Shown in pieces: positions 1,625 to 52,800 of a stretch of DNA of 64,000 nucleotides (its first letter is position 1; every line of letters starts with the position of its first letter). Source of the DNA: Patescibacteria group bacterium. Lineage in GTDB: Bacteria > Patescibacteriota > Microgenomatia > UBA1406 > GWC2-37-13. A program made the translations under genes and the position numbers. Location: the NCBI GenBank assembly GCA_038328135.1, contig JBBQLR010000002.1:12936-76935 (forward strand), read 5' to 3'. The notes under the pieces are model-generated. The model did no database searches, was not told the origin of the DNA, and saw only the letters and a program-made list of their open reading frames with translations.

Positions 1625-3009
1625 TTCTTCATTGTATCAGGAATTATGGTCGCAATTCCTAATTCTTTTAGTTTTGCATGAGCAATTGGAGCAGGGGCGT
1701 TCATAACAGATGTCCTTCCTCCGCTTGTCATTGGGAATGCTATTACTTCTCGTAAATTTACCTCTCCACGGATGCAGGTTAACAATCGGTCAATTCCTGG
1801 CGCAATTCCGCCGTGAGGTGGGGCTCCCCATGCAAGCGCTTCAAGCATGTGGCCAAACTGAGATTGAATATCACTTTCGGAATATCCCATTATTTCAAAA
1901 ACTGTCTTGAGAACTTCTGGTTCATGTGCACGAATGCTTCCTCCACCTACCTCAAATCCATTACACACCAAATCATATTGTGTGGTAACAATACTTCCAA
2001 TATCTTTTTTTTCTAGGAGCTGTTTTTTATATTCAGGTAATGGAGCAGAGAACGGATTGTGTGTAAAAGTCCACCCACCCTCTTCTGTTTTTTCAAAAAA
2101 TGGAAAATCGACTACCCATGCAAATGCTTGAATCTTGTTTTTTTTATCTTCTTCAGTCCGTAAGTCAAATTTATCTGCTCCAAACTGTTTTTGCGCCTCT
2201 TGATAGGTATAACGAGGGAACGGTTTTTGTTTAATGGGAATATTTAGTTTTTCATACACCTCAATGACCATTTTTTCGGTGAGCGCCATCACGTCTTCCC
2301 GTTCCACAAAGCTCATTTCCAAATCAAGCTGTGTAAATTCCCCATAAGCGCGGTCTGCACGAGGATCTTCATCTCGGAAACAGCGTGCAATTTGGAAATA
2401 CCGCTCAAGTCCTCCCACCATTAAAAGTTGTTTGTACTGCTGAGGGGATTGGGGGAGGGCATAAAATTTACCTAATTGTAAGCGGGAAGGGATAATGAAA
2501 TCGCGAGCTCCCTCAGGTGTAGATTCCGATAGAATAGGGGTTTCAACTTCAATAAATCCGTTTTTGTAATAAAACTCGCGAATCTCACGTATAAACTGAG
2601 AGCGAAATGCGAGGTTCTCTGCTAACCGAGGTCTGCGCATATCGAGATAGCGATATTTGAGGCGTGCCTCTTCATCTATTTCATACCCGTCAGTCGTAAC
2701 CGGAATAGGCATGGCTTTTGCTTTATTGAGTATCACTATTTTTTTTACTTCAACTTCAATAGCTCCCGTTTTAATTTTTGTGTTAATTAGTTTTTCTGGG
2801 CGTTGTTTCACTAGTCCCGTTACTTCAACCACATCTTCCATGGAAAGCCCTTTACATTCTTCCCCTCCGATTGCTTGTACAATTCCACTTCTATCGCGAA
2901 GATCAAGAAACACGATTTTTTTATGATCTCGTACGGTATTTACCCATGCATAAAGTACAACTTCTTTTCCAACGAGTCCTGGAGTATCTGCAATGTATAT
3001 GGTTTTCAT
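1621..3009 (-). CDS. aspS: aspartate--tRNA ligase, bacterial type but lacking the GAD insertion domain
   Basis: Class II motifs FYALPQSPQQYKQLLM, RCFRDEDPRADR..EFTQLD and GGGSIR, and C-terminal GIAPGIDRL. Start placed at MKTIY (3009), which has TATAAT 9 nt upstream. An alternative upstream ATG at 3033 overlaps recJ. Confidence 0.9.
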   Translation of the reverse strand: MKTIYIADTPGLVGKEVVLYAWVNTVRDHKKIVFLDLRDRSGIVQAIGGEECKGLSMEDVVEVTGLVKQRPEKLINTKIKTGAIEVEVKKIVILNKAKAMPIPVTTDGYEIDEEARLKYRYLDMRRPRLAENLAFRSQFIREIREFYYKNGFIEVETPILSESTPEGARDFIIPSRLQLGKFYALPQSPQQYKQLLMVGGLERYFQIARCFRDEDPRADRAYGEFTQLDLEMSFVEREDVMALTEKMVIEVYEKLNIPIKQKPFPRYTYQEAQKQFGADKFDLRTEEDKKNKIQAFAWVVDFPFFEKTEEGGWTFTHNPFSAPLPEYKKQLLEKKDIGSIVTTQYDLVCNGFEVGGGSIRAHEPEVLKTVFEIMGYSESDIQSQFGHMLEALAWGAPPHGGIAPGIDRLLTCIRGEVNLREVIAFPMTSGGRTSVMNAPAPIAHAKLKELGIATIIPDTMKK

Positions 3010-3019
3010 AGTTTTTTTA

Positions 3020-4645
3020 TTATAACACCTCATCGACAGCTTTAACGAAGCACTTGAGCTGCTTTCTTCCCTGCCAGTATTGAGCTTCTACGGTATAGAT
3101 GATGGAAAGTGTTACTCCCTCTTTTATCATATCTTTCTGTACGTCTCGTGGTGAAAAAAACACACATTCTACTTCTTTGGTTTTTATTTCAAGGTCCTGG
3201 CCGATAAACTTAAGATGTTCTTGTTTTTTCCCCATTGTTTTAACAAAAATAATTTTTGTTTTGCTTTGAAATGTAGGAGTCGGATTACCGATTCCAAAAG
3301 GAGTTAATTGTTGCAACAAGTCTGCAAGACGTTCACTTACTGAGCTAAGTGGAATATCCAAATCAACACTTATCTCTTTTTCTTTTGGATTGGGAACTTC
3401 ATTCATACGTTCGTCTATGCCTTTTTCAAAGTTAGTAAGTTCTTCATCAGTGATTGAAAACCCAGCAGCTTGAGGATGTCCTCCAACGTGTTTGAGTATC
3501 GCAAGCGATCGAAGAAATGCAATGATATTAAATCCTTTTACGGAACGGGCAGAACCCTTCCATCCGCCCTCCGTTTTTGTCATAACAATCGAGGGTCTAC
3601 GATATCGATCGGTTATTTTAGATGAAATAAGCCCGATAATGCCCTCATTCCAATCCTTATTTTTTTGGAGAATTAATTTTGGTATCCCGGTTTTTTCAAT
3701 TTCAATGAATGCCGTCTCCACAGCAACATCAACCATTTTCTGTCGCGTCACATTATGTTTCTGCGCTTCCTGTGCAAGAAGTTTTGCCTTAAGTGCATCT
3801 TTTGTACAAAGCATACGGACAGCTTCGATGGCATGCGAAAGCCTTCCCACAGCATTAATGCGAGGAGCGAGCGCAAACCCAGCGTGATAGGTGGAGATCT
3901 CCATATTAGTAAGTCCTGATACGGCGAGCAGTTCTTTTATTCCTGGTTTTGTTACGTGGGAAAAAGCTGCTAGCCCATATTTTGCGATACTCCGAGAATA
4001 GCCAACAAGGGGTACCAAATCGGCAATTGTTCCCAGCGAAGCAAGCGCGAGGAAATCATAGGTAAACATGGTTTTTAACCTTTCATTCTTTGGGTCAAAT
4101 GACTGCCATATATCGAGAGCTGTTATATATGCTAACCCGGAACCAGATACAAGCGGGCAATGGATGATTGCTACAGCCGCCTCAGGAAGAATCTCTGGTT
4201 TTGCGTGATGATCCGTTACTATAACAGGAATCCCTTTATCACTCGCATACTGTATTTGATCTCTCGCACTTATCCCATGGTCAACGCTGATAATGAGTCC
4301 GGGATTATATTTTTCTAAAACAACATCTATCCCTTTGGTAGAAAATCCATACCCCTCACTCTGTCGATGAGGAACGTAAGGAAAAGCCGAAAAGCCGAGA
4401 GTATGGAGCGTTTCCCACAACAGAGATCCTCCGGTGATGCCATCAGCATCATAATCGGTATAGACTATTACGTTTTTATTTTTTTCTTTACATGTTTGGA
4501 GGTATGAAAGAAGGATAACAAGCTCTTTTGAAAATCCAAGATTTTTAAGAGAAAAAGTGAGTGGATGAGGAGGATGTAGGAATAATTCAATGTCGTCAAT
4601 TTTTCTTTTTGAAAGCAAAGTTTCAATGATTTTTTCTGGATGCAT
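3020..4645 (-). CDS. recJ: single-stranded-DNA-specific exonuclease RecJ
   Basis: DHH family motifs DYDADGITGG, SVDHG and VTDHH, plus DHHA1 GGHPQAAG. Length 541 aa. Confidence 0.9.
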   Translation of the reverse strand: MHPEKIIETLLSKRKIDDIELFLHPPHPLTFSLKNLGFSKELVILLSYLQTCKEKNKNVIVYTDYDADGITGGSLLWETLHTLGFSAFPYVPHRQSEGYGFSTKGIDVVLEKYNPGLIISVDHGISARDQIQYASDKGIPVIVTDHHAKPEILPEAAVAIIHCPLVSGSGLAYITALDIWQSFDPKNERLKTMFTYDFLALASLGTIADLVPLVGYSRSIAKYGLAAFSHVTKPGIKELLAVSGLTNMEISTYHAGFALAPRINAVGRLSHAIEAVRMLCTKDALKAKLLAQEAQKHNVTRQKMVDVAVETAFIEIEKTGIPKLILQKNKDWNEGIIGLISSKITDRYRRPSIVMTKTEGGWKGSARSVKGFNIIAFLRSLAILKHVGGHPQAAGFSITDEELTNFEKGIDERMNEVPNPKEKEISVDLDIPLSSVSERLADLLQQLTPFGIGNPTPTFQSKTKIIFVKTMGKKQEHLKFIGQDLEIKTKEVECVFFSPRDVQKDMIKEGVTLSIIYTVEAQYWQGRKQLKCFVKAVDEVL

Positions 4646-4663
4646 TGAACAATTGTATCACCT

Positions 4664-8861: not shown

Positions 8862-11122
8862 AGTTGTTCTTTCAATAATTCAATAAAAAACACACGATCC
8901 GTCGACAAGTCAGTATTATAGAGGATTAGGCTATTTTTCACAAGGGGAGAAAAATTTGTATTGAGGAGATTCATATTTTTCGGGAGTCTCAGGGAAAAGT
9001 GGACATCATGTGAAAGTGCACCAATTTGTTTTTGGAGAACGAGTTGATATGTGGCCTTTCCTTTCTTAAATCGTATCGAAGAGGAGTAGGTGAGTGATAT
9101 AGTTTTTCTGGCTTGAGGAGGGATCTCAATGAGGAATCCGATAGTTTTTTGTTTTCCCAATTCTGAATCAAAGGAGCTTACCTGTTGTCCATCAATTTGG
9201 ATACCAAGAACAGGCGAATCTGGCGGAAGTAGAATCTGGAAATAATTGCGATACGCGCCTCCCGGAAAGACATCCGATAATGAATTGTTTATATATGTAA
9301 TGGAAAGATTTGTTGTGATAAGGCCGGCTTCATCAATGCTTGTTTTCACATCATATGATTTGTCAATGAAGAAATTGGTTTTATTCACCCCCAAGTTTGC
9401 GTCAATCGGAAATTGAAAATCTGCGTAACAATTATCTTTGGCAGATTCGGGGCAGAACGGAGTGGCGAGCCGGCCGCTCCAAAAGAGCTCGTCAAGGCTT
9501 TTTTGCAATTTTTCATTGTTCATAAACAACACCATATTTTTCTGATCAAACCCTTGAACAATCGCGGAGCTGAGAAGTAGGGGATTTGCCGTTTCCACCT
9601 TTGTCAGAAGCTGTTTTACAAGTGAAGAAAGGAAGCTTTTTTTCTGAGTTGATCCTGGAAAAAAATCATGTTCAACATAATACTGAGTTTTTATATAGAA
9701 ATTATCTTTAGTGATTTTCTCGTTATAATCGGGTAAAAGTATCTCACCGAAAGCCCCAATTATATCTTTCACAGCAGAAGTGGTAATGAGGGCTGCGCCG
9801 TTCCATGAACTGAGGCCCATCTCCTTTTGTAAAAAGAAAGACGCTTGTTGATAGGTGTCATAAAAGTCTGGAAAAAACGCACTATCCCTCAGGAACCAAT
9901 GGGGTTGATTCAAATAATCGCGAATCGGGTTTGGCGGCGCTACATGAGCAGTAAGTTGGCCATCTGCATCATAGACGTCATATATTTTAAATTCTTTTAT
10001 ACCAAAATATTGGGTTTTTAAAACACCGTAGGAACCAATAAATCCACCTCCGGGGCGCAATTCCATATTATTAGCAAAAAGTAGCATGATATTATGTTCT
10101 TCGGTTTCACCGAGGAGATCGGGCAGGAGTGTGAATACTTTCTTCGCTTTTCTTAATTGAGAAATCCCCTTTTGAAACTGATCTTTGTATTTATTAGAAA
10201 TGAAATAGGGTGGAATTTTTCGGTATATAGTAAGAATCTTATCTTCAGACATTGTTAGTAATTCTTGCACTGCATCATAGTGTTGACGAGTTAATTTACT
10301 AGTGGTTGCGTTTCTTGTCGATTGAAGCACAAGGCGTGAAAAAAGCTGGGACTCATCGGCAAGTTTTTCTAAAGTCAGGACTAAATCGGTCTCTGTATAG
10401 TTTACGACGAATAAATCATCCGGTAATTGAGCAAGAGAAAAAAATAAATAGAGAGGATGTACGGGTTTGTATAAAAGTGATGCAAGTGAAAGAAAAAAGC
10501 TTTTTTTCGCATCACTATCTTTTGCCTCAGAAATAGTATTTGCTTGGATTTGTTTGGCAGAATTAAACGAATACAGGCTGCTTATTCCGAGGGGCACCCA
10601 GAAGGAGAATAAATAAGCTAGTACAATGAGAATACCGATGAGTCGAATGAAGCGAATGGGCATAACGAAATGGAAGCGAATTGCTTTATGTTTTTTTGGC
10701 TTCGAAGGTGCCTGGAAAGTAGATTCAAGCGTAAGTGTTGGGGAATGGTTTTCCTGGGAAATGGCAAACCAGATAATGGTTTGAATTCGACTTACAGCAT
10801 ACTGAGGATTCCCAAGGATATTGATGATTTTTGAGTTTTTGGGAGGTTGGTGTGCCCGAATATGCTTTTTTTGAGAATGGAATAGAATATAGGTGGTGGG
10901 GAGCACATCCCCCATTTTTTTCAGTTTATTAGAAGAGTTTACAACAAAGCAGAGAGTAAACTGGGCAAGATCCTCTGGGATATGGGGAGAAATGAAAACG
11001 CGCATATCATGGGAGACTAAATGGGATTTTAATTGTTTGATAAAATCGTCATTTTCCTCTGTCACAATGAGTACTCTTTGTTTGTGAGTTGTTTGTTCTG
11101 TTACATAGTGAACCCTAGTCAT
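8858..11122 (-). CDS. large membrane-anchored protein, DUF4012-like
   Basis: One TM segment near residue 160 and the block LLFANNMELRPGGGFIGSYGVL, which I recognise as the DUF4012 hallmark. 4-nt overlap with rplY. Confidence 0.7.
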   Translation of the reverse strand: MTRVHYVTEQTTHKQRVLIVTEENDDFIKQLKSHLVSHDMRVFISPHIPEDLAQFTLCFVVNSSNKLKKMGDVLPTTYILFHSQKKHIRAHQPPKNSKIINILGNPQYAVSRIQTIIWFAISQENHSPTLTLESTFQAPSKPKKHKAIRFHFVMPIRFIRLIGILIVLAYLFSFWVPLGISSLYSFNSAKQIQANTISEAKDSDAKKSFFLSLASLLYKPVHPLYLFFSLAQLPDDLFVVNYTETDLVLTLEKLADESQLFSRLVLQSTRNATTSKLTRQHYDAVQELLTMSEDKILTIYRKIPPYFISNKYKDQFQKGISQLRKAKKVFTLLPDLLGETEEHNIMLLFANNMELRPGGGFIGSYGVLKTQYFGIKEFKIYDVYDADGQLTAHVAPPNPIRDYLNQPHWFLRDSAFFPDFYDTYQQASFFLQKEMGLSSWNGAALITTSAVKDIIGAFGEILLPDYNEKITKDNFYIKTQYYVEHDFFPGSTQKKSFLSSLVKQLLTKVETANPLLLSSAIVQGFDQKNMVLFMNNEKLQKSLDELFWSGRLATPFCPESAKDNCYADFQFPIDANLGVNKTNFFIDKSYDVKTSIDEAGLITTNLSITYINNSLSDVFPGGAYRNYFQILLPPDSPVLGIQIDGQQVSSFDSELGKQKTIGFLIEIPPQARKTISLTYSSSIRFKKGKATYQLVLQKQIGALSHDVHFSLRLPKNMNLLNTNFSPLVKNSLILYNTDLSTDRVFFIELLKEQL

Positions 11123-11126
11123 ACTG

Positions 11127-11136
11127 TATAATTATA
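11127..11136. promoter_or_regulatory. overlapping divergent -10 boxes in a 16-nt intergenic gap
   Basis: Plus strand: TATAAT 11127-11132, 6 nt before ATG 11139. Minus strand: TATAAT (plus 11131-11136), 8 nt before ATG 11122. No SD on either side. Confidence 0.5.
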
Positions 11137-11138
11137 TA

Positions 11139-11624
11139 ATGAATTTTGATCATAAAATCTTGTCCCTATCTTCTCTGGAGAAGAATGGATTAGATACTAA
11201 TAAGAAGATAGTTGTAGCAGGAGGGTGTTTTGATATTCTTCACTTCGGACATCTCACTTTCCTGCAAAAAGCCAAAAGCGCTGGGGATATTCTCGTCCTC
11301 CTTCTTGAGCCAAATGAGTTTATTTTGACAGTTAAAAAGAAAACGCCGGTCCATACCCAGCGTCAACGAGCAGAGATTCTCGCAGCCATAGGATATGTTG
11401 ATTATGTTATACTGTTGCCCTTGCTGAAGGATCCGAATAAGGATTATCCGGTTATAATTAAAGGATTACATCCAAGCGTTATAGCCCTTACAGAAGGAGA
11501 TCCGATATCAGCGCGAAAAAAAGAATTTGCACAATCTATCGGTGCGGAGACATTATCAATTCCTTATTTGTCCTCATTTTCCAGTTCACAGCTTATCACC
11601 TATGCGCCTATTTTTAGGGATTGA
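11139..11624 (+). CDS. cytidylyl/adenylyltransferase family protein (RfaE domain II / TagD-like)
   Basis: GGCFDILHFGHLTFL carries the HxGH nucleotidyltransferase signature; 161 aa. Confidence 0.75.
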   Translation: MNFDHKILSLSSLEKNGLDTNKKIVVAGGCFDILHFGHLTFLQKAKSAGDILVLLLEPNEFILTVKKKTPVHTQRQRAEILAAIGYVDYVILLPLLKDPNKDYPVIIKGLHPSVIALTEGDPISARKKEFAQSIGAETLSIPYLSSFSSSQLITYAPIFRD

Positions 11625-12190: not shown

Positions 12191-12337
12191 TTACTTGGAT
12201 CCAATTTTGTACATACCTGTTGCACAAGTTGGGCATTTTGCCTTCATTGCTGGTTTACCATTTTTCATGGTAACTTTTTCAGGATCTGTAACATCTTTTT
12301 TTGCTCGACATTTTACACAATACATTGATGTTGTCAT
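12191..12337 (-). CDS. small zinc-ribbon protein (DUF5679-like), 48 aa
   Basis: Not in the ORF track because it is under 60 aa. Translation: MTTSMYCVKCRAKKDVTDPEKVTMKNGKPAMKAKCPTCATGMYKIGSK. It has CxxC...CxxC and a strong SD GGAGGTG 9 nt upstream. Confidence 0.8.
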   Translation of the reverse strand: MTTSMYCVKCRAKKDVTDPEKVTMKNGKPAMKAKCPTCATGMYKIGSK

Positions 12338-12345
12338 AGGGTGGT

Positions 12346-12564
12346 TCACCTCCTTTCAAATAGACGAAGATAATAAATGAAATATAATGCAATTTCAAAT
12401 AGAGAAATAAAGAGCGCAAACAAAATACTTTTAGTCAAATCTTTTTTGAACATGGGATCCCCGGTTAAAAAATCATTATGAATCACAGTGGTTTGTGTTC
12501 CTTCGGAGACCTCTCTTATTTTCATCTGATTTCTAAGCTTGTGCAGCCGTGTTTTTTTAGGCAT
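12346..12564 (-). CDS. small single-pass membrane protein (72 aa), possibly translationally coupled to the zinc-ribbon gene
   Basis: One hydrophobic helix (ILFALFISLFEIALYFIYYL). Its TGA stop lies inside the SD of the downstream gene. TACAAT sits 6 nt upstream of its ATG. No homology recognised. Confidence 0.4.
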   Translation of the reverse strand: MPKKTRLHKLRNQMKIREVSEGTQTTVIHNDFLTGDPMFKKDLTKSILFALFISLFEIALYFIYYLRLFERR

Positions 12565-12570
12565 GGTGTA

Positions 12571-12611
12571 ATTGTAATCATATTGACAGCACTTTGTAAA
12601 GTGGATAAAAT
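12571..12611. promoter_or_regulatory. back-to-back divergent promoters
   Basis: Plus strand: TTGACA 12583-12588, 17 nt, TAAAAT 12606-12611, 7 nt, ATG 12619. Minus strand: TACAAT (plus 12571-12576), 6 nt, ATG 12564. Confidence 0.55.
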
Positions 12612-12618
12612 GAAAGGT

Positions 12619-13065: not shown

Positions 13066-13099
13066 ATTCTATTACTAATTTTTTGTAAGATATATTTCT

Positions 13100-40872: not shown

Positions 40873-40892
40873 GATGATAAAAATTCTCTATT

Positions 40893-42053: not shown

Positions 42054-43111
42054 GATAACACTTCCTTTTTTTTATCAACAACGATGAAAAAGATAGCGAG
42101 CAAGAGCGCGACAAGACCGAAAGCAATAAGTTTTTCCAAGCCATTTAAAAAGAGACTTGCACTCCCTAAAATAGCGGTGACTAACCAATAGAATATCGCG
42201 ATTCTTCTTTTTCCCCAACCAAGTTCCATAAGACGATGGTGAAGGTGCCCTCTATCTGCCTTAAATGGTGATGCTCCTTTCCTAATTCGGCGAATAATTG
42301 TGTAGAGTGCATCAATCATGGGGACAGCTAAAACAAGCACGAAAGTCCCGATTTTTCCAAATGAAAGGATTGATAATACTCCAAGCCAAAAGCCAGCTAA
42401 TGCGCCACCTCCGTATCCAGGCATAATCATTTGAGGAAAGAAATTGAACGGAAGAAATCCCACAAATACTCCCGACACGATTATTGCAAAAAAAAGAACA
42501 TTTGTGGTGCTGACATCATGGGCGATAAACCGTTGGGAAACAAGCCCAAGAATAATAGCTGCGATAGCAACGAATCCAGGCATCTGGCCATCTACCCCCT
42601 TACTCCAATTGATCATATTAGTAATCCATGTAAGCCAAATAAGTGCAATTAAATCTGCCAAAGGCAAAATTGAGTGGACACCACCAAAAATAGTAAAGGT
42701 AATTCTCCATGTGTCAAGGTGAATGACGCCTCCAAACGGATTTGATACAAACGGAATTCCGAGTCCAAATCCAATGACAATTGCGGAAATTAAAAGGTTA
42801 ATTCCAAACCGGAAATAGGGCGACAAATCATAGTAGTCATCAAGAAGCCCGACAATTATAGTAAGCGTGCTCGCGATAATGATGCCTATATAGAGCTTAT
42901 TGAGGGAGATAAATATAAAAGAAGTAATGATGAAAGCAAGAAAAAGGGGGAGACCGCCGCCTCGCGGTATACGTCCAATATGGGTGTGTGCTGGGTGTTT
43001 ACGAATTTTGCTATCAGTGATTAGCCCAAAACGGTTTGCAAGAAATATCGTCGGAGGTGTAAGAAGATAGGCAAAACTAGCAGCCATTCCAAACGCAAGA
43101 ACATATTCCAT
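42050..43111 (-). CDS. polyprenyl-phosphate N-acetylhexosamine-1-phosphate transferase (GT4, WecA/TagO-like)
   Basis: About 10 TM helices, GLLDDYYDL, NWSKGVDG and DRGHLHHRL motifs (WecA-like rather than the MraY PIHHH motif). Confidence 0.8.
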   Translation of the reverse strand: MEYVLAFGMAASFAYLLTPPTIFLANRFGLITDSKIRKHPAHTHIGRIPRGGGLPLFLAFIITSFIFISLNKLYIGIIIASTLTIIVGLLDDYYDLSPYFRFGINLLISAIVIGFGLGIPFVSNPFGGVIHLDTWRITFTIFGGVHSILPLADLIALIWLTWITNMINWSKGVDGQMPGFVAIAAIILGLVSQRFIAHDVSTTNVLFFAIIVSGVFVGFLPFNFFPQMIMPGYGGGALAGFWLGVLSILSFGKIGTFVLVLAVPMIDALYTIIRRIRKGASPFKADRGHLHHRLMELGWGKRRIAIFYWLVTAILGSASLFLNGLEKLIAFGLVALLLAIFFIVVDKKKEVLS

Positions 43112-43116
43112 AATAG

Positions 43117-43422
43117 TTAGGAAACCAACAAAATGATTCTAATGAACAAATAGGTACATATTCCAATGATTGATATATTTACATACCGAAACAATGATTT
43201 CTCAAAATCTTCACGATGAAAATAAGTGTTATATATGAATGTATTGAAAATACAAAAACTATTCATAATAATGGGGATAAGAAAAATCATCCACCACTCG
43301 ACAAGCTGATCCTCGCCAATAGGGAGTGAATAGAAGAGAGGAATTTGGGGAGGGATCATTCTCATCCTAAGGATATACACACCAAGTTGCAAGAGATTTG
43401 CGCCCAAAAGCAAGCCTATCAT
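43117..43422 (-). CDS. small polytopic membrane protein (101 aa)
   Basis: Three hydrophobic helices. Start placed at MIGLLLG, which has TATAAT 9 nt upstream. The 46 codons further upstream in the track ORF look non-coding. Confidence 0.5.
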   Translation of the reverse strand: MIGLLLGANLLQLGVYILRMRMIPPQIPLFYSLPIGEDQLVEWWMIFLIPIIMNSFCIFNTFIYNTYFHREDFEKSLFRYVNISIIGICTYLFIRIILLVS

Positions 43423-43575
43423 ATAATGTATATTATACCTTATCAATCCAGAATGAGGCAGGGAGTAGCGAGAATCTACCCCTTGCAGGGAGAAAAAAAA
43501 TACAGTATTATCACCGCATGACATAAAAAGATTAGCTCTCCTCACCCACCTATTAATCATTCATTTTTTATTACC

Positions 43576-44892
43576 ATGGTTGACAAAATACTCCAAAAAC
43601 TTACTCAGGAAGAAGTGAAAAGACAAACGGAAGGAATTGAGCTTATCCCTTCCGAAAACTTTGCTTCTGCGTCGGTTCGATCATATTTAAGCACAGAATT
43701 TGTGAACAAATACTCGGAAGGATACCCGGGTAAACGATACTACGGAGGAAATGAAGTGGTTGATAAGGTAGAGCTATTAGCTCAAGATCGTGCGAAAAAA
43801 CTGTTCGGTGTTCCTTTCGTCAATGTACAGCCGTACTCAGGTTCGCCTGCGAATTTAGCTGTCTATTTAGCCGTGTGCAAGCCGGGAGACAGTATCATGG
43901 GGCAGGGGCTTACCGCTGGTGGGCATCTTACGCACGGGCATATGGTATCTGCAACGGGAATTTTCTATAAAAGCCACCAATATGGTGTAGATCCAACGAG
44001 CCCGGACCTTTTCGATTATGAAGCAATATTGAAACTTGCTGAAGAGTTTAAGCCAAAGCTTATTTGGGTTGGAGCAACAGCTCATCCTCTTATTTTCAAC
44101 TATAAAAAATTTAGCGAAATAGCAGAAAAAGTAGGAGCGGTGCTTGCTGCGGATATTTCACACATTGCGGGTTTAATAGTAGGAGGAGTTCATCCAAGCC
44201 CAGTTCCCTATGTTCATATTGTAACAACTACCACTCATAAAACGCTTCGAGGACCCCGTGGAGCAATGATAATGGTTACAAAAAAAGGGTTTGAAGCTTA
44301 CCCAGATTTACCTGACAGAATTAATAAGGCTGTATTTCCCGGTCTTCAAGGAGGACCTCATGATAATCAGACAGCAGCAATTGCAGCGGCTCTTGAAGAA
44401 GCTTCCACGAAGAAGTTTGCCACATACGCAAAACAAATTGTAAAGAATTCATTGGCTCTCGCCGATGAGCTAAAAAAACAAGGGATGCAGTTGGTTGGAG
44501 GCACTTCACAAAATCATCTCATCCTAGTCGACTTAACGGAGGCAATGGGACCTGGAACAGGAATATTTATGCAGCGAGCCCTAGATCACTCAGGACTTAC
44601 TTTGAATAAGAATACTGTTCCAGGAGAAAAATCATCTCCTTTCTATCCATCGGGAGTACGTCTGGGAACGCCAGCAGCAACAAGTAGAGGGATGAAAGAA
44701 AATGATATGAAGAAAATTGGGCAGTTTATGGGACAAATCTTGGATATCATAAAAGGCTATAAACTTCCGTCCGAAAAAGAAGAAAGACTGAAACTATTGA
44801 AGGAGTTCTCACTATTTATCTCAACAAATAAGGAAATAAAGAAAATCAGGGAAGAGGTACGAATCATGGCAAAACGATTCCCCTTGCCATAA
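43576..44892 (+). CDS. glyA: serine hydroxymethyltransferase
   Basis: LIPSENF, GYPGKRYYGG and TTTTHKTLRGPRG (PLP lysine) signatures. Confidence 0.95.
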   Translation: MVDKILQKLTQEEVKRQTEGIELIPSENFASASVRSYLSTEFVNKYSEGYPGKRYYGGNEVVDKVELLAQDRAKKLFGVPFVNVQPYSGSPANLAVYLAVCKPGDSIMGQGLTAGGHLTHGHMVSATGIFYKSHQYGVDPTSPDLFDYEAILKLAEEFKPKLIWVGATAHPLIFNYKKFSEIAEKVGAVLAADISHIAGLIVGGVHPSPVPYVHIVTTTTHKTLRGPRGAMIMVTKKGFEAYPDLPDRINKAVFPGLQGGPHDNQTAAIAAALEEASTKKFATYAKQIVKNSLALADELKKQGMQLVGGTSQNHLILVDLTEAMGPGTGIFMQRALDHSGLTLNKNTVPGEKSSPFYPSGVRLGTPAATSRGMKENDMKKIGQFMGQILDIIKGYKLPSEKEERLKLLKEFSLFISTNKEIKKIREEVRIMAKRFPLP

Positions 44893-44895
44893 CGA

Positions 44896-46200
44896 TTATT
44901 GGGAAGACTGGAGTGTGTACGTGCCATCGTCGTTCACGATGAAAGCGCGTTCTGGATATTGTGGAAGAGAGTCCCGGAACGACTGTTTGTCAATGAGCAC
45001 TTTTCCAACAAACCAAGGTAGGTCTTCGTATGTTTTTTTATAAAGATATACTTTTTTTGTGGGGAGATAATACTCTGCTGGATGGAAGTCATATTCATGA
45101 GTGACATAGACAACATCATGTGGGCCCATCTCATTTCGTATTGTTTTAAATGTTTTATTTAAGGGTGCCTTTACTCGCAATAGTATCTGGATTGAGGAAT
45201 ATGACAGTAAGAAAAATGTAAAAAGAAATATAAGTGCAAAACGAATATATTTATTAGCAATGCTTTCAAAAGAAACAATAAGAAAAAGAATCATACCGAC
45301 TGATGTAAATATAAGATAGCGAGGAAGGAAAATAGGTTTAAAGAAAGACAGAATATAAACAACTAGCGGAATTCCAAAAGCCCATCCAATGAGAAGAGGA
45401 AAATGTATCTTTTTTTGACGTGAAAAATGATGAAGCGCACCAAAAATCATCGTTCCTGAAATGATAAGCGAAAGAAAGGTGAGAAAAGGAAAAACGACCC
45501 ATGCATCTTTTTCATACCCGGTGAGGATAATCGCAGGGAGAAGTAGTAAATCTTTCAATGAAGAAGTTGGAACCCAAAATGATTCACCTACAGGTGGACG
45601 AGCAAACAGCAGAATCACGATCCACGGTATAAACCATAGGGCAGCTTTAGCAAGCGGTAGTAAGAAACGATTCCGTTCTGCCTTGTGGGTAGTAATCACA
45701 ATAAAAGCAACCTGAAACAGTATCACACCTAAGAGAAAGTAATGTGTGTATAACGCAACTAGTGCGGTATATGCATACAGTTTATATTTTTTCTTCATTA
45801 AAAAATAGAAGAGGAGTGTCGCTATAAATGCCATCATGCTATACATACGCGCTTCAAAGGCATAGTAGTTTAAGAGTGGATTAATCATAAAAAAAAGAAG
45901 ATAGAGAAGCGATTTTTTTGTTCCCAATTTAAATATATCCCTCATGATAATGAACGCAACATACAGCGTTGCCCAAAAAAAGACAAAAGAGAGACTGCGG
46001 AGAGACACTTCAGAAGTTCCAAACAGAGCCATCCACAATTTCAATAAAAGATAATACAGAGGTGGGTTGGCGTCTTGGGCTGTAGACCAAAAAAGGAGAT
46101 GAATAGGCTGGTTTGCCATGAGATATGAAAATGCTTCATCTCTCCAGAAGCTCGCCACGAAATACGCTAGTGGCGTATTGGTAAATAAGTATCGCATCAT
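44896..46200 (-). CDS. GT-C membrane glycosyltransferase (GT39/PMT_2, ArnT-like)
   Basis: About 11 TM helices with an N-terminal-loop WRDEAF (DE motif) and a C-terminal soluble domain. Confidence 0.7.
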   Translation of the reverse strand: MMRYLFTNTPLAYFVASFWRDEAFSYLMANQPIHLLFWSTAQDANPPLYYLLLKLWMALFGTSEVSLRSLSFVFFWATLYVAFIIMRDIFKLGTKKSLLYLLFFMINPLLNYYAFEARMYSMMAFIATLLFYFLMKKKYKLYAYTALVALYTHYFLLGVILFQVAFIVITTHKAERNRFLLPLAKAALWFIPWIVILLFARPPVGESFWVPTSSLKDLLLLPAIILTGYEKDAWVVFPFLTFLSLIISGTMIFGALHHFSRQKKIHFPLLIGWAFGIPLVVYILSFFKPIFLPRYLIFTSVGMILFLIVSFESIANKYIRFALIFLFTFFLLSYSSIQILLRVKAPLNKTFKTIRNEMGPHDVVYVTHEYDFHPAEYYLPTKKVYLYKKTYEDLPWFVGKVLIDKQSFRDSLPQYPERAFIVNDDGTYTLQSSQ

Positions 46201-47678
46201 ACTTTTTCAGTCACTTTATAAGTAATATTTTTCTTTAGGATAATACGCGTATGTGATTCAAGTGCTGGAAGGGCGGAAAGAAAAAAGGATATGAACGGCA
46301 AAAAGTACCATTGGATTATCATAAGCGGCAGAGCTGTGATTGGTGTCTCAACTTTCATTTTCTTCCTAATATGGATATCAATATAAACGTAGACAAGTAT
46401 CATCGATGACGAAACGGTAAGAATGAATCCAGATAACTGGGGAAGAAGAAAACCAAGAACCGTATTCTTAAAAGCAGGATTGATAATGGGAGGGATGGAA
46501 GCACTTATTGTTAAAATGAAAAAAGATATTGGCCAAAGAAGATGGTTTTTTGACAGGAACGCTATTTTCTTGAATTTTGTTTTGAGCGAAATATGGGGGC
46601 TTGTCAGTGACTTACGGAGGGCATACCCGATATCACTCACACCCCAAGCCCATCGTTTTTCTTGTTCATATCGACTCTTGAATGTTTTGAGAAGACTTCC
46701 TGCAAATACCGCATCACTTCCGATAAGAGTGTACATAGGAATTGTTTTCACCTTATCTCCAAATTTGAAAAAGGCCTGTAAATAGACATGCCAGTCCTCA
46801 GGAATAATGTCAACGTCCCAATAATTAATTTCATGGATGAGCCACAGACTAACTGAATAGGTGGAAATTTGGATAAGGTTGTCTTTCTGGGACAAAAAAG
46901 CAAGTCGCATAATTGATGACAAAGTGGCTTGAATGCGAATGAAAAGGGGGAGGTGCCAGAAATTATTATAAAGAAGGACAGGTGCCCAATAGAAATGATA
47001 AATACGGTCTTTATCATGGGTAAAAGAGTGAGAGAGATACGAAAAGTAGTTTGTCGGGAGAATGCTGTCTGCATCACAAATGGTGAGAATAACTTCCTTG
47101 GGATCGAGATTATTTTTTTGCACATAAGTTGAAATAAGGTGAGCTGCCGCGGTTTGGTTACTTGCCTTACCCGCTTCTTCGTTAGCTTCGAGAACGTGAT
47201 AAGATACAATGATGTCCATAAAAAAATGACCGTATTCATTCCTAATAACTTCTGCTTTCTCCGATGCTTCAGGTTCTCTTTTTTCAAATGCTAATACCAA
47301 AACAATTTTCTTATACGGATAATCATTCGCCACCATATGATCGAGTGTTTTTTTTAGTTTATAGAGCGGTTCTTTGTAATTGGGGATGATGATGAAATGG
47401 GTTACTAGTGCTGTTTTTTCTGATCCTTGCTTTATGAGAGAATAAAACGGAACTTTTTCGAATGTATGGAGCAGGTGATAGGAAAGAGTGCTGTAGTAGA
47501 CGGTCTCCAAACAACTATACAGGAAGTAGAGGTCAAAGGCGATAATGAAATAAGCAACGAGCGCAGGGTGAAACGGGGATAACCAAAGAGGGAGAGTGAT
47601 AAGAAACCATGATAATACAGGGATTGTTAAATCGAACAATCGACCCAAAAAGGGATGACATTCACTTTTCTCTGACAT
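46197..47678 (-). CDS. membrane-embedded processive GT2 glycosyltransferase (cellulose/chitin synthase-like)
   Basis: IIPNYKEP, CDADS (DxD) and QEKRWAWG (QxxRW) motifs flanked by TM helices. ATGA overlap with the GT39 gene. Confidence 0.75.
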   Translation of the reverse strand: MSEKSECHPFLGRLFDLTIPVLSWFLITLPLWLSPFHPALVAYFIIAFDLYFLYSCLETVYYSTLSYHLLHTFEKVPFYSLIKQGSEKTALVTHFIIIPNYKEPLYKLKKTLDHMVANDYPYKKIVLVLAFEKREPEASEKAEVIRNEYGHFFMDIIVSYHVLEANEEAGKASNQTAAAHLISTYVQKNNLDPKEVILTICDADSILPTNYFSYLSHSFTHDKDRIYHFYWAPVLLYNNFWHLPLFIRIQATLSSIMRLAFLSQKDNLIQISTYSVSLWLIHEINYWDVDIIPEDWHVYLQAFFKFGDKVKTIPMYTLIGSDAVFAGSLLKTFKSRYEQEKRWAWGVSDIGYALRKSLTSPHISLKTKFKKIAFLSKNHLLWPISFFILTISASIPPIINPAFKNTVLGFLLPQLSGFILTVSSSMILVYVYIDIHIRKKMKVETPITALPLMIIQWYFLPFISFFLSALPALESHTRIILKKNITYKVTEKV

Positions 47679-47684
47679 AGCAGT

Positions 47685-47702
47685 ATTATACCGCAGTATA
47701 AT
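47685..47702. promoter_or_regulatory. divergent pair of perfect -10 boxes
   Basis: Minus strand: TATAAT (plus 47685-47690), 6 nt before ATG 47678. Plus strand: TATAAT 47697-47702, 6 nt before ATG 47709. No SD on either side. Confidence 0.55.
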
Positions 47703-47708
47703 ATTCTC

Positions 47709-50702
47709 ATGTCATCATTCCAAAAAGTATACTCATTGTTGAACGAGCAACAAAGGCAGGCAGTTGACACAATCGAAGGTCCGGTGATGGTAGTGGCAGG
47801 CCCGGGAACGGGGAAAACGCAGATTCTCACACTCCGTATTGCCAATATCCTTTTAAAAACCCAAGTTAACCCTGAAAATATCCTTGCCCTTACCTTTACG
47901 GAAAACGCTGCCGCTGAGATGAAAGACAGGTTGAGCGCCCTCATTGGTCCAGACGCATTTCGGGTAAACATAAACACTTTTCACGGATTTTGTAATGAAC
48001 TGATCCAGAAACACTTTGACATCTTTCATCATTTAGCCTCATATATGCCGATAAGCGCACTTGAGGAGATCCAGATGATTCAACAAATTATCGAAAGCGA
48101 AAATTTCATTTTTCTACGCCCTCAGGGAGATCCTGCTTATTATTTTCACCCGATTAGGTCTGCCCTATCAGCATTAAAAAAAGAAGGGGTAAGTCCCGCA
48201 CAATTTAAAAAGGCTGTCAAGGAGTGGAAGAGTGATTTTGAGAAGCGGGATGACCTTATCAACACAAAAGGTAAATATAAGGGAAAGATGAAAGGGTTCG
48301 CAATAGATGAAATAAAAAATATTGAAAAAAATAAGGAATTCGCTCGAGTTTATGAGCTATACCAGGAGAAAATGAGGACGAATAAATTATACGATTTCAA
48401 CGATATGATAATTGAGGTGATTCAAGCATTTAAACAAAGCGAGGATTTTCTTTCTCAGATTCGGGAAACATACCAGTATATCCTTGTCGATGAACATCAG
48501 GATACGAATAATGCCCAAAATACCATAATTGAATATATATGTAGTATCGATGATTTCCCTAATCTTTTCGTTGTAGGAGATGAAAAACAGTCGATTTTTC
48601 GTTTTCAAGGAGCGTCCCTTGAGAATTTCCTTTATTTCAAAAAGACATTTCCGCGGGCAACGCTCATCTCTCTTATCGATAACTATCGGTCAACGCAAAG
48701 TATTCTCGATTCTGCACATTCACTCATTAAACACAATATACAAAGTATTTCGAGGGAAATTCACCTGAATGCAAGAGCTAAACTTCCTGAAATAACGATG
48801 ACTCTTCTTAAGAATAGCAATCCACATCAGGAGTATTTTGAAGTTGCCCGCTCAATACTCAAACAACATGAATCTGGAGTGGCGTATGAGCAAATAGCGA
48901 TAATCATGAGGAAGAACATCGATCTACTTAATATGGCTGACGTGCTAACGAAAAACAATATTCCTTCTATCATTTCCACGGATGAATCAATTTTCTCTGA
49001 CATCTATATCCAAAAAATACTTTCATTGTTGCGGGCGATTTATTTTGCGGGTGATGATGCATTTTTATCGAAGGTGTTGCTCATGGATATTTTCTCACTC
49101 AGTCCACTCGATGTTTTTACTGTCATGCAAAATGCTCACAAAAGCAAACAATCACTTTGGGATTATTTGAACGGGGCAGTTGTACCTAAAAATCTTACAG
49201 AAACGATACACGCCATAATCGGATGGAAAAAGCGGTCCGAAAACGAAAGTATCGATGAGTTTTTTATCGAGTTGCTCCATGAATCGGGGATTATGGAACA
49301 TATCCTCAAAGAATATAATTCACTTGCGATATTGGAGAAGCTGCATGTGTTATATGAAGACATAAAAGAGCTCCAGCGAAAAAATCATTTATTGGACCTT
49401 AAAGGATATCTCGAATATCTCGAATTGTTGGAAGAACACGCAATCGCACCACATATAAAAACGATCAAAAGAAAAGCAGGGAGTGTGTTTATAACGACTG
49501 CACACAAAGCAAAAGGGCTGGAATTTGAATATGTCTATATTCCCAAAGTAACGGATGGTTATTGGGGAAATGCTCGCGGCCAGATATCGCTCATCCATCT
49601 TCCTTGGAACTATCTATCGCGCATAGAGACAAAACAGGAAAAAGAAGATCTAATCGAAGAAGAACGAAGGCTTTTTTATGTTGCCCTTACCCGTGCAAAA
49701 AAACAATTGATTCTTTCCTACAGCGTTCAAAATGAAGAAGGAAAAGCTCAACTCCCTTCACGATTTATTTTTGAAATCCCACAGGAATTAATCCATATGG
49801 ATTCTAAAGAAGAACTTCCGGATGAAGCAAAAAATAGGTTAATTACCTATCTTACCCCTCATAAACAAGCTCCAGATTATTACGATAAAGAAGAAATGCA
49901 GGAGTATATCCGGTCTCTTTTTATTCATAATGGTGTATCAGTGAGCGCCCTAAACAATTTTATAAACTGTCCTTGGCGTTATTTGTTCCGCAATCTCATT
50001 CGGCTTCCGGACATACGGGGATATTATCTACTTCTGGGGACGGCGGTCCATGATACTATCCGTGAATATATTTCACAAAAGAAAAATAACGTACTTTGGG
50101 GAGAAAACGAGCTCATACATTACTATAAAGAGACCATTACACACTATTCTGCTACGGAAAAGGATTTAACTGTCTTATTAGATAAGGGCTCCGAAATAAT
50201 TAAATCATATTATCAAAAACGCATGAAGGATTGGGATACGAATAGAGAATCGGAATTAATTATCCCGAAAATGTATCTTGACGAGGATATATCAATCAAC
50301 GGAAAAATAGATATGATGGTTTTGGAGAAAAACAATGTAGTCGTGGTATACGACTTTAAAACGGGAAAAGCGAAAAGTAGAAATGCGCTTCTTGGTGGAA
50401 CGCAAACTCAAAATAAAGACTATTATCGTCAACTCGTCTTTTATAAGCTCCTTTTGTCTTTGTATAAAAAAGGGCAATTCAAGATGAGGGAGGGAATAAT
50501 TGAATTTGTTGAATCTGCACTGGATGGGGAAATCAAAAGTGATTCATTTATTATCGAAGAAATCGAAGTGAAGAATCTAATAGAGGAAATTCATGTGATG
50601 AAGAATTCTGTCCTTTCCCTTTCATTCTGGGATAAGAGATGTGGCGACGTGGAGTGTGAGTATTGCCGACTGAGGTCCCATTTTTATCGACCTTTACGAT
50701 GA
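47709..50702 (+). CDS. UvrD/PcrA-type SF1 helicase fused to a C-terminal PD-(D/E)xK (Cas4/AddB-like) nuclease with a Cys cluster
   Basis: AGPGTGKTQ Walker A, DEHQDTN, and TAHKAKGLEF...YVALTRA. C-terminal CPWRY, IDMMV...VYDFKTGK and CGDVECEYC. Confidence 0.85.
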   Translation: MSSFQKVYSLLNEQQRQAVDTIEGPVMVVAGPGTGKTQILTLRIANILLKTQVNPENILALTFTENAAAEMKDRLSALIGPDAFRVNINTFHGFCNELIQKHFDIFHHLASYMPISALEEIQMIQQIIESENFIFLRPQGDPAYYFHPIRSALSALKKEGVSPAQFKKAVKEWKSDFEKRDDLINTKGKYKGKMKGFAIDEIKNIEKNKEFARVYELYQEKMRTNKLYDFNDMIIEVIQAFKQSEDFLSQIRETYQYILVDEHQDTNNAQNTIIEYICSIDDFPNLFVVGDEKQSIFRFQGASLENFLYFKKTFPRATLISLIDNYRSTQSILDSAHSLIKHNIQSISREIHLNARAKLPEITMTLLKNSNPHQEYFEVARSILKQHESGVAYEQIAIIMRKNIDLLNMADVLTKNNIPSIISTDESIFSDIYIQKILSLLRAIYFAGDDAFLSKVLLMDIFSLSPLDVFTVMQNAHKSKQSLWDYLNGAVVPKNLTETIHAIIGWKKRSENESIDEFFIELLHESGIMEHILKEYNSLAILEKLHVLYEDIKELQRKNHLLDLKGYLEYLELLEEHAIAPHIKTIKRKAGSVFITTAHKAKGLEFEYVYIPKVTDGYWGNARGQISLIHLPWNYLSRIETKQEKEDLIEEERRLFYVALTRAKKQLILSYSVQNEEGKAQLPSRFIFEIPQELIHMDSKEELPDEAKNRLITYLTPHKQAPDYYDKEEMQEYIRSLFIHNGVSVSALNNFINCPWRYLFRNLIRLPDIRGYYLLLGTAVHDTIREYISQKKNNVLWGENELIHYYKETITHYSATEKDLTVLLDKGSEIIKSYYQKRMKDWDTNRESELIIPKMYLDEDISINGKIDMMVLEKNNVVVVYDFKTGKAKSRNALLGGTQTQNKDYYRQLVFYKLLLSLYKKGQFKMREGIIEFVESALDGEIKSDSFIIEEIEVKNLIEEIHVMKNSVLSLSFWDKRCGDVECEYCRLRSHFYRPLR

Positions 50703-51526
50703 CCTGTGTCCTTACTATACATTTCGTATACCGAAACGAGCGTAAATACGAAAATAAGCGAAACTGCTATGGTTGCTACGTTAACTACGAACGGAAACAG
50801 AGCAAAAAGAAGCGTTATGGTGAATAATGGGACGTGCGTGCCATGCATACTCGCCTGGATGCATTTTTTAAGGTGAATATGGGGTATGAAGGTTCGAAGT
50901 AATACAAATACAAGGAACGATGACAATAAGACAAGAAGGGAAACCCCTACCATAAAAGTCAATGGTACGAGAACGATAAGAATAGTATAGAAGAATAATA
51001 TAAAGGCCGGGAAATATGAATTTGTTTGCGTAATAAATGACTGAATTGTAGGCTTTGTGATAAGAAAATTCCAAGAACTGTTATACGGTCGAACAAATAC
51101 ACTCCCTTTATAAGATATTTGCGCCTTGTCCTGCCCAAGGAAAACAAGCGGGAGTGGGATATGTGCGTTTTCCATTTTGTCCCTTGTTTGGACCATAAAC
51201 ATAAAAAGAGGTTGGCTTCCGTCATAGACCCACAAGAACAATGGTTTGTCTAAATTCGTTTCCAATATTCCCTTCGTGAAAGTAAGCTTCACATCATCAG
51301 GAAAAGACATGAGGGATCTAATTGTTGCATTTTTGTAATGAGCCATTTTTATCGGAGATACTTGATATACTACAATCCCAGTAATTATCAATGCAAAAAA
51401 GGAAAGGACAATAAAATAGTATTTAAACGAAAATTGAAAGCGAGTATGAAGTAGTTTTGGGTAATAAATGTCTTGAGGGACGAAAGAATGAACAAAGGTT
51501 GCTAAAATGTGCTTGACTTTTTTCAT
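50684..51526 (-). CDS. polytopic membrane protein (possibly DUF1189-like)
   Basis: Start at MKKVKHIL with CATAAT 7 nt upstream. N-terminal TM, a soluble loop, then 4-5 C-terminal TMs. Family assignment is tentative. Confidence 0.5.
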   Translation of the reverse strand: MKKVKHILATFVHSFVPQDIYYPKLLHTRFQFSFKYYFIVLSFFALIITGIVVYQVSPIKMAHYKNATIRSLMSFPDDVKLTFTKGILETNLDKPLFLWVYDGSQPLFMFMVQTRDKMENAHIPLPLVFLGQDKAQISYKGSVFVRPYNSSWNFLITKPTIQSFITQTNSYFPAFILFFYTILIVLVPLTFMVGVSLLVLLSSFLVFVLLRTFIPHIHLKKCIQASMHGTHVPLFTITLLFALFPFVVNVATIAVSLIFVFTLVSVYEMYSKDTGHRKGR

Positions 51527-51615
51527 GTTACGAATTATGATAGAGTAATCAGAAAAAAAATGCAACTTCATCTATTGAAGTGAGATTTTTCTTTATTAAT
51601 TTATATTATTATCTT

Positions 51616-52800
51616 ATGGCAGAAGGAGTATTTGCTAGAACAAAACCTCATTTGAATATTGGAACTATTGGACACGTCGATCACGGAAAAACTACAACAA
51701 CATCTGCTATTCACTACGTTCTTTCCAAAAAAGGTCTCGCAAAATTTCTTAAATACGAAGATATTGATAAAGCTCCAGAAGAAAGAGCACGTGGCGTCAC
51801 CATCAATCTTCATCACTCAGAATACGAAACAGTAAAAAGGCACTATGCACATATTGATGCTCCAGGACATTCCGATTACATCAAGAACATGATTACAGGA
51901 GCCGCTCAAATGGATGGAGCAATCCTCGTTGTATCAGCTCCAGATGGTCCAATGCCACAAACGAGAGAGCACATCCTTCTTGCAAAACAGGTTAACGTTC
52001 CTGGCATTATTGTCTTTCTTAATAAGGTAGATATGGTTCAAGACAAGGAAATCCTTGACCTCGTTGAAATGGAAGTGAGAGATCTTCTTACAAAATATGG
52101 ATTCCCAGGAGACACTGTTCCCATTATCAGAGGATCAGCCCTTAAAGCTCTTCAAGATGATCCAGAAGCTATCAAACAGATTGAAGCTCTTATGGACCAA
52201 GTTGATTCATATTTCCCAGATCCAGTCAGACCAACAGACAAACCATTCCTTATGCCTATTGAGGATGTTTTTACAATCCCAGGTCGTGGAACAGTGGTTA
52301 CAGGTCGTGTTGAAAGAGGAATCTTAAAGCTCGGAGAAGAACTTGAAATTGTTGGACTCAAAGACACAACAAAGACAGTAGTTACAGGTATCGAAATGTT
52401 CAGAAAAACACTTGATGAAGCACGAGCAGGAGACAATACAGGAATTCTTATCAGAGGAATTGAAAAGAAAGACGTACAACGTGGACAAGTTCTTGCAAAA
52501 CCAGGAACAATCAAACCACACACAGAATTTGAGGCTGAAATCATCGTTCTTAAAAAGGAAGAAGGGGGAAGACACACAGCATTCTTCAATGGATATAGAC
52601 CACAGTTTTATATCAGAACGACAGATGTTACTGGAGAAATCATTCTTCCAGCAGGAGTAGAAATGGTTATGCCAGGAGATAATGTAAAGGTCACTGGAAA
52701 GCTTATCTACCCAGTTGCTATGGAAGAAGGATTAAAGTTTGCTATCCGAGAGGGTGGCCACACAGTAGGAGCTGGAGTCGTAACAAAAATTATTAAATAA
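51616..52800 (+). CDS. tuf: elongation factor Tu
   Basis: [14 protein letters not shown] and NKVD motifs. Start at [12 protein letters not shown]; the track ORF begins at an upstream non-ATG codon. Confidence 0.97.

Follow-up and report, generated by a model that had tools for sequence, protein, structure and literature searches.

Bacteria rich in leaderless transcripts, for example Mycobacterium tuberculosis and Deinococcus deserti, form group C of the GeneMarkS-2 classification, which Lomsadze et al. (2018, PMC6028130) describe as having a Pribnow box 6-8 nucleotides (nt) before the starts of first genes and 25-50% of transcripts predicted to be leaderless. The same paper reports that this in silico signature was confirmed by differential RNA sequencing in M. 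tuberculosis and D. deserti. Zheng et al. (2011, PMC3160421), who surveyed 953 bacterial genomes, took a TA-like signal about 10 bp upstream of the translation start as the mark of a leaderless gene; such TA-led genes exceed 20% in Actinobacteria and Deinococcus-Thermus. Here we describe a similar arrangement in the genome of a Candidatus Roizmanbacteria member of the candidate phyla radiation (CPR; 1.05 Mb in 86 contigs, 38.6% GC), beginning from a 64,000-nt stretch of it (C2:12936-76935 of the assembly) that we call the window. TATAAT-like hexamers lie just before the ATG of many of its genes. We estimate at about 80% the probability, judged from the sequence, that these hexamers are promoters that place the start of transcription at or near the ATG and give leaderless mRNAs.

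The window genome also differs from each of these systems. Group C bacteria (PMC6028130) use Shine-Dalgarno (SD) sequences for their remaining genes, whereas the window genome has no SD signal save at roughly a dozen genes. Group C members with genetic code 11 are almost all high in GC according to bioRxiv 10.1101/2022.07.25.500264, unlike the window genome with its 38.6%. The low-GC Mycoplasma assigned to group C resemble it, according to the MetaGeneMark-2 preprint, in having small AT-rich genomes with 30-60% of genes predicted to be leaderless, but they use code 4 and carry an SD-type motif at other genes, whereas the window genome uses code 11 and has no general SD. Bacteroidota (group B) share with it an anti-SD kept in the 16S rRNA, a lack of SD at most genes and an A-rich start context; however, one non-promoter motif precedes all group B genes (PMC6028130), whereas here a promoter-like hexamer is limited to genes that lead a transcription unit. 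Set against the TA-led survey, the share of such genes in the window genome, about 27%, reaches the top class of PMC3160421. Patescibacteria were not found in the accessible parts of PMC6028130 or bioRxiv 10.1101/2022.07.25.500264, and a literature search found no published description of leaderless initiation for CPR, Patescibacteria, Saccharibacteria or Microgenomates. A TM7x transcriptome preprint makes no mention of untranslated regions (UTRs) or promoters, and loss of the anti-SD is reported only for part of Parcubacteria (PMC9297842).

Results

Hexamers are concentrated 6-10 nt before ATG codons

A sequence-only reading of the window had listed 16 starts, mostly of unit-leading genes, at which a -10-like hexamer is followed by 6-9 nt and an ATG without an SD. 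We read the 50 nt upstream of all 16 ATGs and computed hexamer coordinates, spacers, TGn extensions and the best -35 element. Hexamer, spacer, coordinate and strand agreed with the sequence at 16 of 16. Eight of the hexamers are exact TATAAT, seven have one mismatch and one, the weak TAAGAT before the DUF3048 gene, has two. A TGn extension is present at aspS, NUDIX and hrcA (3/16) and a -35 element with at most two mismatches at 17-18 nt spacing in five (DUF4446, the Arg leader, hrcA, PEGA and the 72-aa open reading frame (ORF)). None has an SD at usable spacing. Fourteen of the 16 face a divergent neighbour, which bears out the description of these genes as mostly unit-leading; aspS and DUF3048 have a same-strand gene 10 and 34 nt upstream, respectively.

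We examined the whole genome with a simple gene model of 825 genes, chosen by a periodic Markov coding score and covering 81% of the sequence. The hexamer was defined as TATAAT with at most one mismatch and with A2 and T6 fixed, and the spacer was counted from hexamer to ATG. Three tests were used that avoid picking starts by the motif itself. Among the 1177 exact TATAAT copies on both strands, an ATG opening at least 100 codons followed at spacers 6, 7, 8, 9 and 10 in 64, 18, 34, 18 and 16 cases, with only about 1-6 at most other spacers. When each start was taken as the first ATG, 220 of 647 starts had a hexamer at spacer 5-10, compared with 61.8 +/- 7.5 (maximum 80) when the 40 nt before each of them were shuffled 200 times with dinucleotides preserved; for exact TATAAT the counts were 94 and 8.1 +/- 2.7. 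With positional and dinucleotide-shuffle controls, z was about 21 for at most one mismatch and about 32 for exact TATAAT.

When any early in-frame ATG was allowed, 320 of the 825 genes scored at spacer 5-10, and shifted windows gave a third of that count (116 at 14-19, 90 at 22-27 and 95 at 30-35). The spacers of these 320 genes peaked sharply at 6 (119 genes), followed by 8 (66), 7 (49), 9 (32), 5 (28) and 10 (26), while internal in-frame ATGs showed no -10 distance peak. The excess corresponds to about 220 genes, or 27% of those modelled. Thus, an AT-rich background as the source of the hexamers is rejected, because the observed counts lie far above those from shuffles, from shifted windows and, in the TATAAT-anchored test, from most other spacers; the null-model comparison proposed with the 16 starts came out in their favour, with a frequency far above the AT-rich expectation and a sharp peak at 6-10 nt.

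The distance peak at spacers 6-10 was seen for ATG (171 at spacer 6). Genome-wide, GTG, TTG and CTG showed no peak there. Since polymerase starts equally well with G, the restriction to ATG points to the AUG requirement of leaderless translation.

The hexamers carry promoter hallmarks and depend on gene context

We compared 315 start-adjacent hexamers with 15,128 other hexamers of the same definition for features that had not been used in their selection. A TGn directly upstream was found in 28% of the start-adjacent hexamers and in 5.4% of the others (p = 3.5e-37). A -35 element (TTGACA with at most two mismatches) at 16-18 nt was likewise more frequent (28% versus 13%, p = 4e-11), with no difference at the control spacing of 24-26 nt (p = 0.62). 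About half of the start-adjacent hexamers had one or the other, compared with 18% of controls. A pyrimidine occupied -1 in 73-91% of spacer 6-8 cases.

The frequency of a hexamer at 5-10 nt followed the position of the gene in its unit. It was 58% for divergently transcribed genes (control windows 13-16%), 50% for genes 16-60 nt behind a same-strand gene (9-19%) and 20% for genes at most 15 nt behind one (8-12%). The ribosomal-protein operon (53253-62877) contained no credible case. Both sides carried the signal in 33 of 94 divergent pairs, and in 20 of those 33 the intergenic spacer was only 17-100 nt. Pairs with so short a gap have their -35 regions within the gene on the other side, and a leader would find no space.

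hrcA as a comparative anchor

The hrcA start (20332-20372, plus strand) consists of TTGACT-17-TGgTATATT, 9 nt and the ATG at 20370, overlapped by a CIRCE-like TTAGCA-N15-TGCTAA. In hrcA orthologs TTGAC(A/T) is followed by this inverted repeat, which covers both the spacer and the -10 box and marks the promoter independently. We collected 80 loci encoding HrcA relatives of 55-95% identity. The right arm of the repeat ends at most 5 nt from the ATG in 23 of 74 orthologs, as it does in the window, and 46 of the 74 have a leader of 15 nt or more. Leadered and leaderless groups (80 orthologs) share the HrcA N-terminus M-(D/E)-(D/E)-L, which places the start codon beyond doubt. A leader of 46-49 nt occurs in the closest relatives (86-95% identity; JAZDOY010000037 and JAPLYQ010000105 are at 95%), whereas the window lacks one, as again do relatives at 82%. 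This order indicates that leadered and leaderless states interchange quickly.

Applying the same -10/ATG test to the 80 loci gave 3.2 hits per 6 kb, spacer 6 being the commonest, and the geometry recurs in orthologs of several genes. One is the NUDIX gene of the window (TGaTATACT with the hexamer at 20313-20318, 6 nt, ATG with its A at 20306; 20304-20321, minus strand), which starts MYEK; ORFs with this beginning have the same geometry in 12 related loci.

We also observed that leadered hrcA orthologs (L002-L007, L054, L067 and L068) have a two-tier hairpin about 50-75 nt before the ATG, which is at 3001 in most of these loci. In it an SD-like CGGAG(G/U)G of the 3' arm, located 6-38 nt and mostly 7-15 nt upstream of the AUG, pairs with a CCCUUCG-like 5' arm. 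No consensus structure emerged when 18 heterogeneous leaders were aligned together, but a homologous subset of eight yielded one, with compensatory changes in 7 of 12 pairs. This structure looks like an RNA-thermometer-type leader of the heat-shock operon. The hrcA gene of the window genome has no hairpin leader.

The signature is widespread among relatives

Breadth was assessed by counting TATAAT-N6-ATG against a reversed-pattern control, which in the window genome gave 18 and so matched the 20-26 counts at spacers 13-14. Across 61 genomes of the class there were 2039 occurrences and 535 reversed ones, with an enrichment of at least 2-fold in 52 of the 61. The 143 genomes of other Patescibacteria classes gave 3068 and 1493; 119 of them were informative, 66 at 2-fold or more and 28 without enrichment. 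The -10/ATG signature is class-wide, and it is widespread but not universal in Patescibacteria.

Individual starts in the window

The DUF4012 and cytidylyltransferase genes form a divergent pair with a 16-nt intergenic space, in which two -10 boxes overlap on opposite strands. TATAAT at 11131-11136 lies 8 nt before the DUF4012 ATG (A at 11122; 11120-11136, minus strand), and TATAAT at 11127-11132 lies 6 nt before the cytidylyltransferase ATG at 11139 (11127-11141, plus strand). The GT2 and helicase genes stand back to back across 30 nt, with TATAAT (47685-47690) 6 nt before the GT2 ATG (A at 47678; 47676-47690, minus strand) and TATAAT (47697-47702) 6 nt before the helicase ATG at 47709 (47697-47711, plus strand).

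The 72-aa ORF (12562-12600, minus strand) has TTTACA-18-TACAAT, with the hexamer at 12571-12576, 6 nt before its ATG (A at 12564). The DUF4446 gene (12583-12621, plus strand) has TTGACA (12583-12588)-17-TAAAAT (12606-12611), 7 nt before the ATG at 12619; an AAAGG is present but ends 1 nt from that ATG. DUF3048 (13086-13102, plus strand), in which the weak TAAGAT lies 8 nt before the ATG at 13100, may be co-transcribed with DUF4446. The PEGA gene (34086-34125, plus strand) has TTGTCT-17-TACAAT, 8 nt and the ATG at 34123. Further starts of the list are those of rfbB (TATAAT at 40287-40292, 8 nt, A at 40278; 40276-40292, minus strand), a small membrane protein (TATAAT at 43432-43437, 9 nt, putative ATG with its A at 43422; 43420-43437, minus strand), a second membrane protein (CATAAT at 51534-51539, 7 nt, A at 51526; 51524-51539, minus strand) and tuf (TATATT at 51602-51607, 8 nt, or TATTAT, 6 nt, ATG at 51616; 51602-51618, plus strand).

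aspS (3007-3027, minus strand) has TGtTATAAT, with the hexamer at 3019-3024, 9 nt before the ATG (A at 3009). A GAGGTG is present but lies upstream of the -10 box. The gap to the same-strand upstream gene is 10 nt, and the promoter falls within the 3' end of that gene. Cases beyond the earlier list, all on the minus strand, are TGaTACAAT 6 nt before the ATG with its A at 1624, in a gene that overlaps aspS by 4 nt (1622-1639); TGaTACAAT 6 nt before the ATG at 4645 (4643-4660); TATAAT 6 nt before the ATG at 19030, the box lying within the upstream gene, which overlaps by 4 nt (19028-19042); and TATAAT 5 nt before the ATG at 37024 (37022-37035).

In 1622-4660 (minus strand), a separate TGn-extended -10 with a 6-9-nt spacer precedes each of three successive same-strand genes (ATGs 4645, 3009 and 1624). 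Their gaps to the preceding gene range from -4 to 18 nt, so that the promoters are embedded in the 3'-terminal part of the coding sequence before them. The aspS product (1621-3009, minus strand) is only about 462 aa long; when it is aligned to Thermus thermophilus AspRS, about 120 residues of the chain (positions about 300-420) are passed over, which are the insertion domain of bacterial-type AspRS.

An Arg-rich leader ORF lies upstream of the gene called argG in the sequence-only reading. It is preceded by TTGACA-17-TAAAAT and 7 nt, with the A of its ATG at 34023 (34021-34059, minus strand). Within 33893-34059 (minus strand) this 26-codon ORF holds four Arg codons and is followed by a GC-rich hairpin and T run (33902-33920), which directly precede the argG gene. 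This is the layout expected of a leader-peptide attenuator, here on a putatively leaderless transcript.

Choice of start codon

The geometry had also been proposed to settle several ambiguous start codons. The DUF4446 start at 12619 is supported, since the match to the Pfam DUF4446 profile sets in at residue 4 of the short form, while nothing matches the 47 residues that the long form adds. For aspS, the short form and E. coli AspRS align with residue 12 opposite residue 13, which is consistent with the start at 3009 but not decisive. The start at 51526 is weakly consistent, with a weak DUF1189 match beginning at residue 24. For tuf, the first residue of solved EF-Tu chains (MAKEKF...) falls on the MAEGVF at the 51616 ATG and not on the GTG at 51580, which supports the start that had been listed.

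Shine-Dalgarno sequences are confined to a small set of genes

The 16S rRNA, whose 3' end had been suggested as a check, ends in GGATCACCTCCTTT, so that the anti-SD is intact with CCTCC kept. We scanned the genome for SD sequences with seven 3-5-mers and then with 6-7-mers. GGAG, GAGG, AGGA, AAGG, GGAGG and AGGAG showed no positional peak before starts genome-wide and only the 3-nt periodicity of coding sequence. The 7-mers of AAAGGAGGTGA gave a small bump at spacing 8-11 that came from roughly a dozen loci, seven of which have 9-11 nt of AAAGGAGGTGA. The claim that SD-dependent initiation also exists here therefore stands for roughly a dozen genes with a 7-11-nt SD, DUF5679 among them, but finds no counterpart in a genome-wide SD signal. 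The GAGGAG noted before the GNAT gene at 40355 is a further candidate SD. SD pairing is, by this reading of the sequence, kept for a small gene set and not in general use, and these dozen genes may explain why the anti-SD has been retained.

The DUF5679 gene provides a contrast to the leaderless candidates. It has a perfect 11-nt SD, AAAGGAGGTGA (12346-12356), 8 nt before the ATG (A at 12337; 12335-12356, minus strand). SD-led loci, with 7-11 nt of AAAGGAGGTGA ending 4-10 nt before the ATG, are mostly short genes and include, besides DUF5679, ribosomal protein bL12, a GlsB/YeaQ-like membrane protein and several hydrophobic or Cys/Gly-rich peptides of 46-68 aa. They are found at 12335-12356 of the window (minus strand) and elsewhere in the assembly at C63:668 (minus), C5:35809 (plus), C5:21994 (minus), C20:14354 (plus), C20:14600 (plus) and C55:3226 (plus).

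Genes without a -10 box have an A-rich, G-poor region from -8 to -2 and a T at -1. The T at -1 is found in 64-81% of starts in every context, including genes that overlap by 4 nt, compared with 27-31% at non-start ATGs; examples in the window are the starts at 52829, 53253, 55666, 58311 and 59741. U-AUG appears to be the general start context. The genome encodes initiation factor 3 and a 356-aa S1 protein with 3-4 S1 domains. We observed that the gene for this rpsA-like protein (L082:2557-2640, minus strand; G000:C40) has TGgTATAGT about 35 nt upstream of the ATG and a leader with AAGGAGAAAGG; it appears to be leadered and is perhaps SD-assisted.

Discussion

Geometry, statistics, promoter hallmarks, context dependence, ATG specificity and conservation in relatives were all observed directly, and the leaderless reading is well supported by them; the transcription start sites (TSSs) and the mode of ribosome loading are what we infer from these observations. 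The hexamers would act as the -10 elements of sigma-70-type housekeeping promoters, many with a TGn extension and some with a -35, from which RNA polymerase would begin at the A of the ATG or 1-3 nt upstream. According to PMC12641261, promoter strength is greatest for transcription beginning 7-8 bp beyond the -10, and in 79-93% of variants the start site is set by a Y-1 R+1 Y+2 start element centred at that point. With a spacer of 6 the A of the ATG is the seventh base after the hexamer, which would be the best place to start, and the pyrimidine-purine-pyrimidine start element would be supplied by T(-1)A(+1)T(+2). For spacers 6-7 initiation would thus be expected on the A itself; for spacers 8-10 it would fall there or 1-3 nt earlier. 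The resulting mRNAs would have no 5' UTR for a ribosome-binding site, and the ribosome with fMet-tRNA would bind the 5'-terminal AUG. Leaderless initiation would be the default for about half of the unit-leading genes, and some tightly packed genes, with promoters inside the preceding coding sequence, would be leaderless as well. The remaining genes, many of which overlap or abut an upstream gene, would be translated without SD, except for the roughly one dozen that would use it.

Several points weigh against this interpretation or limit its reach. About 100 of the 320 calls made with any early ATG are expected to be false positives. Spacers of 8-10 nt (124 of the 320) allow leaders of 1-4 nt, and many genes are possibly "near-leaderless". 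Upstream promoters could also give leadered read-through transcripts of the same genes, and the ATG-only peak could instead reflect a general rarity of GTG starts. T at -1 was dropped as a mark of the TSS because tightly coupled internal genes have it just as often (64%). A generic two-hexamer promoter scan of 33800-52000 found 53 sites where shuffles gave 53.5, so the case is built on position relative to the ATG and on co-occurrence, not on promoter density.

One alternative is that the hexamers are real but secondary or internal promoters, most mRNAs being leadered or starting several nt upstream and being translated by ordinary SD-independent initiation. Read-through is plausible at aspS and at ATGs 1624, 19030 and 37024, which are located inside the same-strand gene before them or no more than 10 nt from it; the A-rich, SD-free context with T at -1 at all genes evidently supports internal initiation, and the leaders of at least 15 nt in most hrcA orthologs point the same way. 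We nevertheless consider this explanation unlikely. Divergent pairs with 17-100-nt spacers have no promoter site other than the one abutting the ATG, unless it is inside the opposite gene. The sharp maximum at spacer 6 is what a start at the A predicts and is not predicted by a promoter that is merely nearby, and an ATG-only peak is unexpected from polymerase preference alone, G being an equally good initiating base. It is also conceivable that the hexamer is a translational signal on a leadered mRNA (AU-rich, bound by S1, or another non-SD motif as in group B) and not a promoter. It sits at the usual distance of a ribosome-binding site, in a genome that makes no general use of SD, encodes an S1 protein and has A/T-rich upstream regions. 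However, a ribosome-binding site should precede all genes, a criterion given in PMC6028130, whereas the hexamer is concentrated at unit-leading genes and is near background before tightly linked internal genes and in the ribosomal-protein operon. TGn and a -35 at 16-18 nt are contacts of polymerase, and the hrcA hexamer lies inside a CIRCE-like operator downstream of TTGACT; a translational role for the hexamer is, in our judgement, highly improbable. A chance outcome of AT-rich intergenic sequence, to which the 38.6% GC and the equality of the generic scan with its shuffles might point, is scarcely credible against z values of about 21 and 32, shifted windows at a third of the count and internal ATGs without a peak.

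With promoter-driven leaderless transcription as the preferred interpretation, the window genome shows the defining sequence features of the known leaderless-rich class, and the mechanism that they predict is not new. Worth noting are the lineage, the near-absence of SD despite an intact anti-SD, and what follows for annotation. To our knowledge, the 2011 survey of 953 genomes predates the availability of CPR genomes. We see about even odds that the Microgenomates-type class, together with a large part of the phylum, is a third large leaderless-default lineage after Actinobacteria and Deinococcus-Thermus, and the first with low GC and code 11, with three tiers of initiation. The first tier would be a 5'-terminal AUG produced by (TGn)TATAAT-N6-9 promoters. 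The second, recognisable by an A-rich tract and a U at -1, would be internal initiation or coupling without an SD. In the third, the intact anti-SD would serve the mostly short genes (bL12, DUF5679 and small membrane peptides) with a 7-11-nt SD. Among close relatives, as seen for hrcA, a given gene would switch between the first tier and a structured leader that carries an SD.

If this is so, start calls made by SD-based gene finders in CPR genomes would be systematically wrong for many genes; within the window five starts move by 8-47 codons. The fusion of transcription and translation start signals would remove 5' UTRs and make divergent genes 17-30 nt apart possible. Promoter-ATG fusions may be usable in expression tools for the first genetically tractable Patescibacteria. 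The finding would add a deep-branching low-GC lineage to the debate on ancestral leaderless initiation, and it suggests that ultra-small bacteria with reduced ribosomes mostly run without SD/anti-SD pairing.

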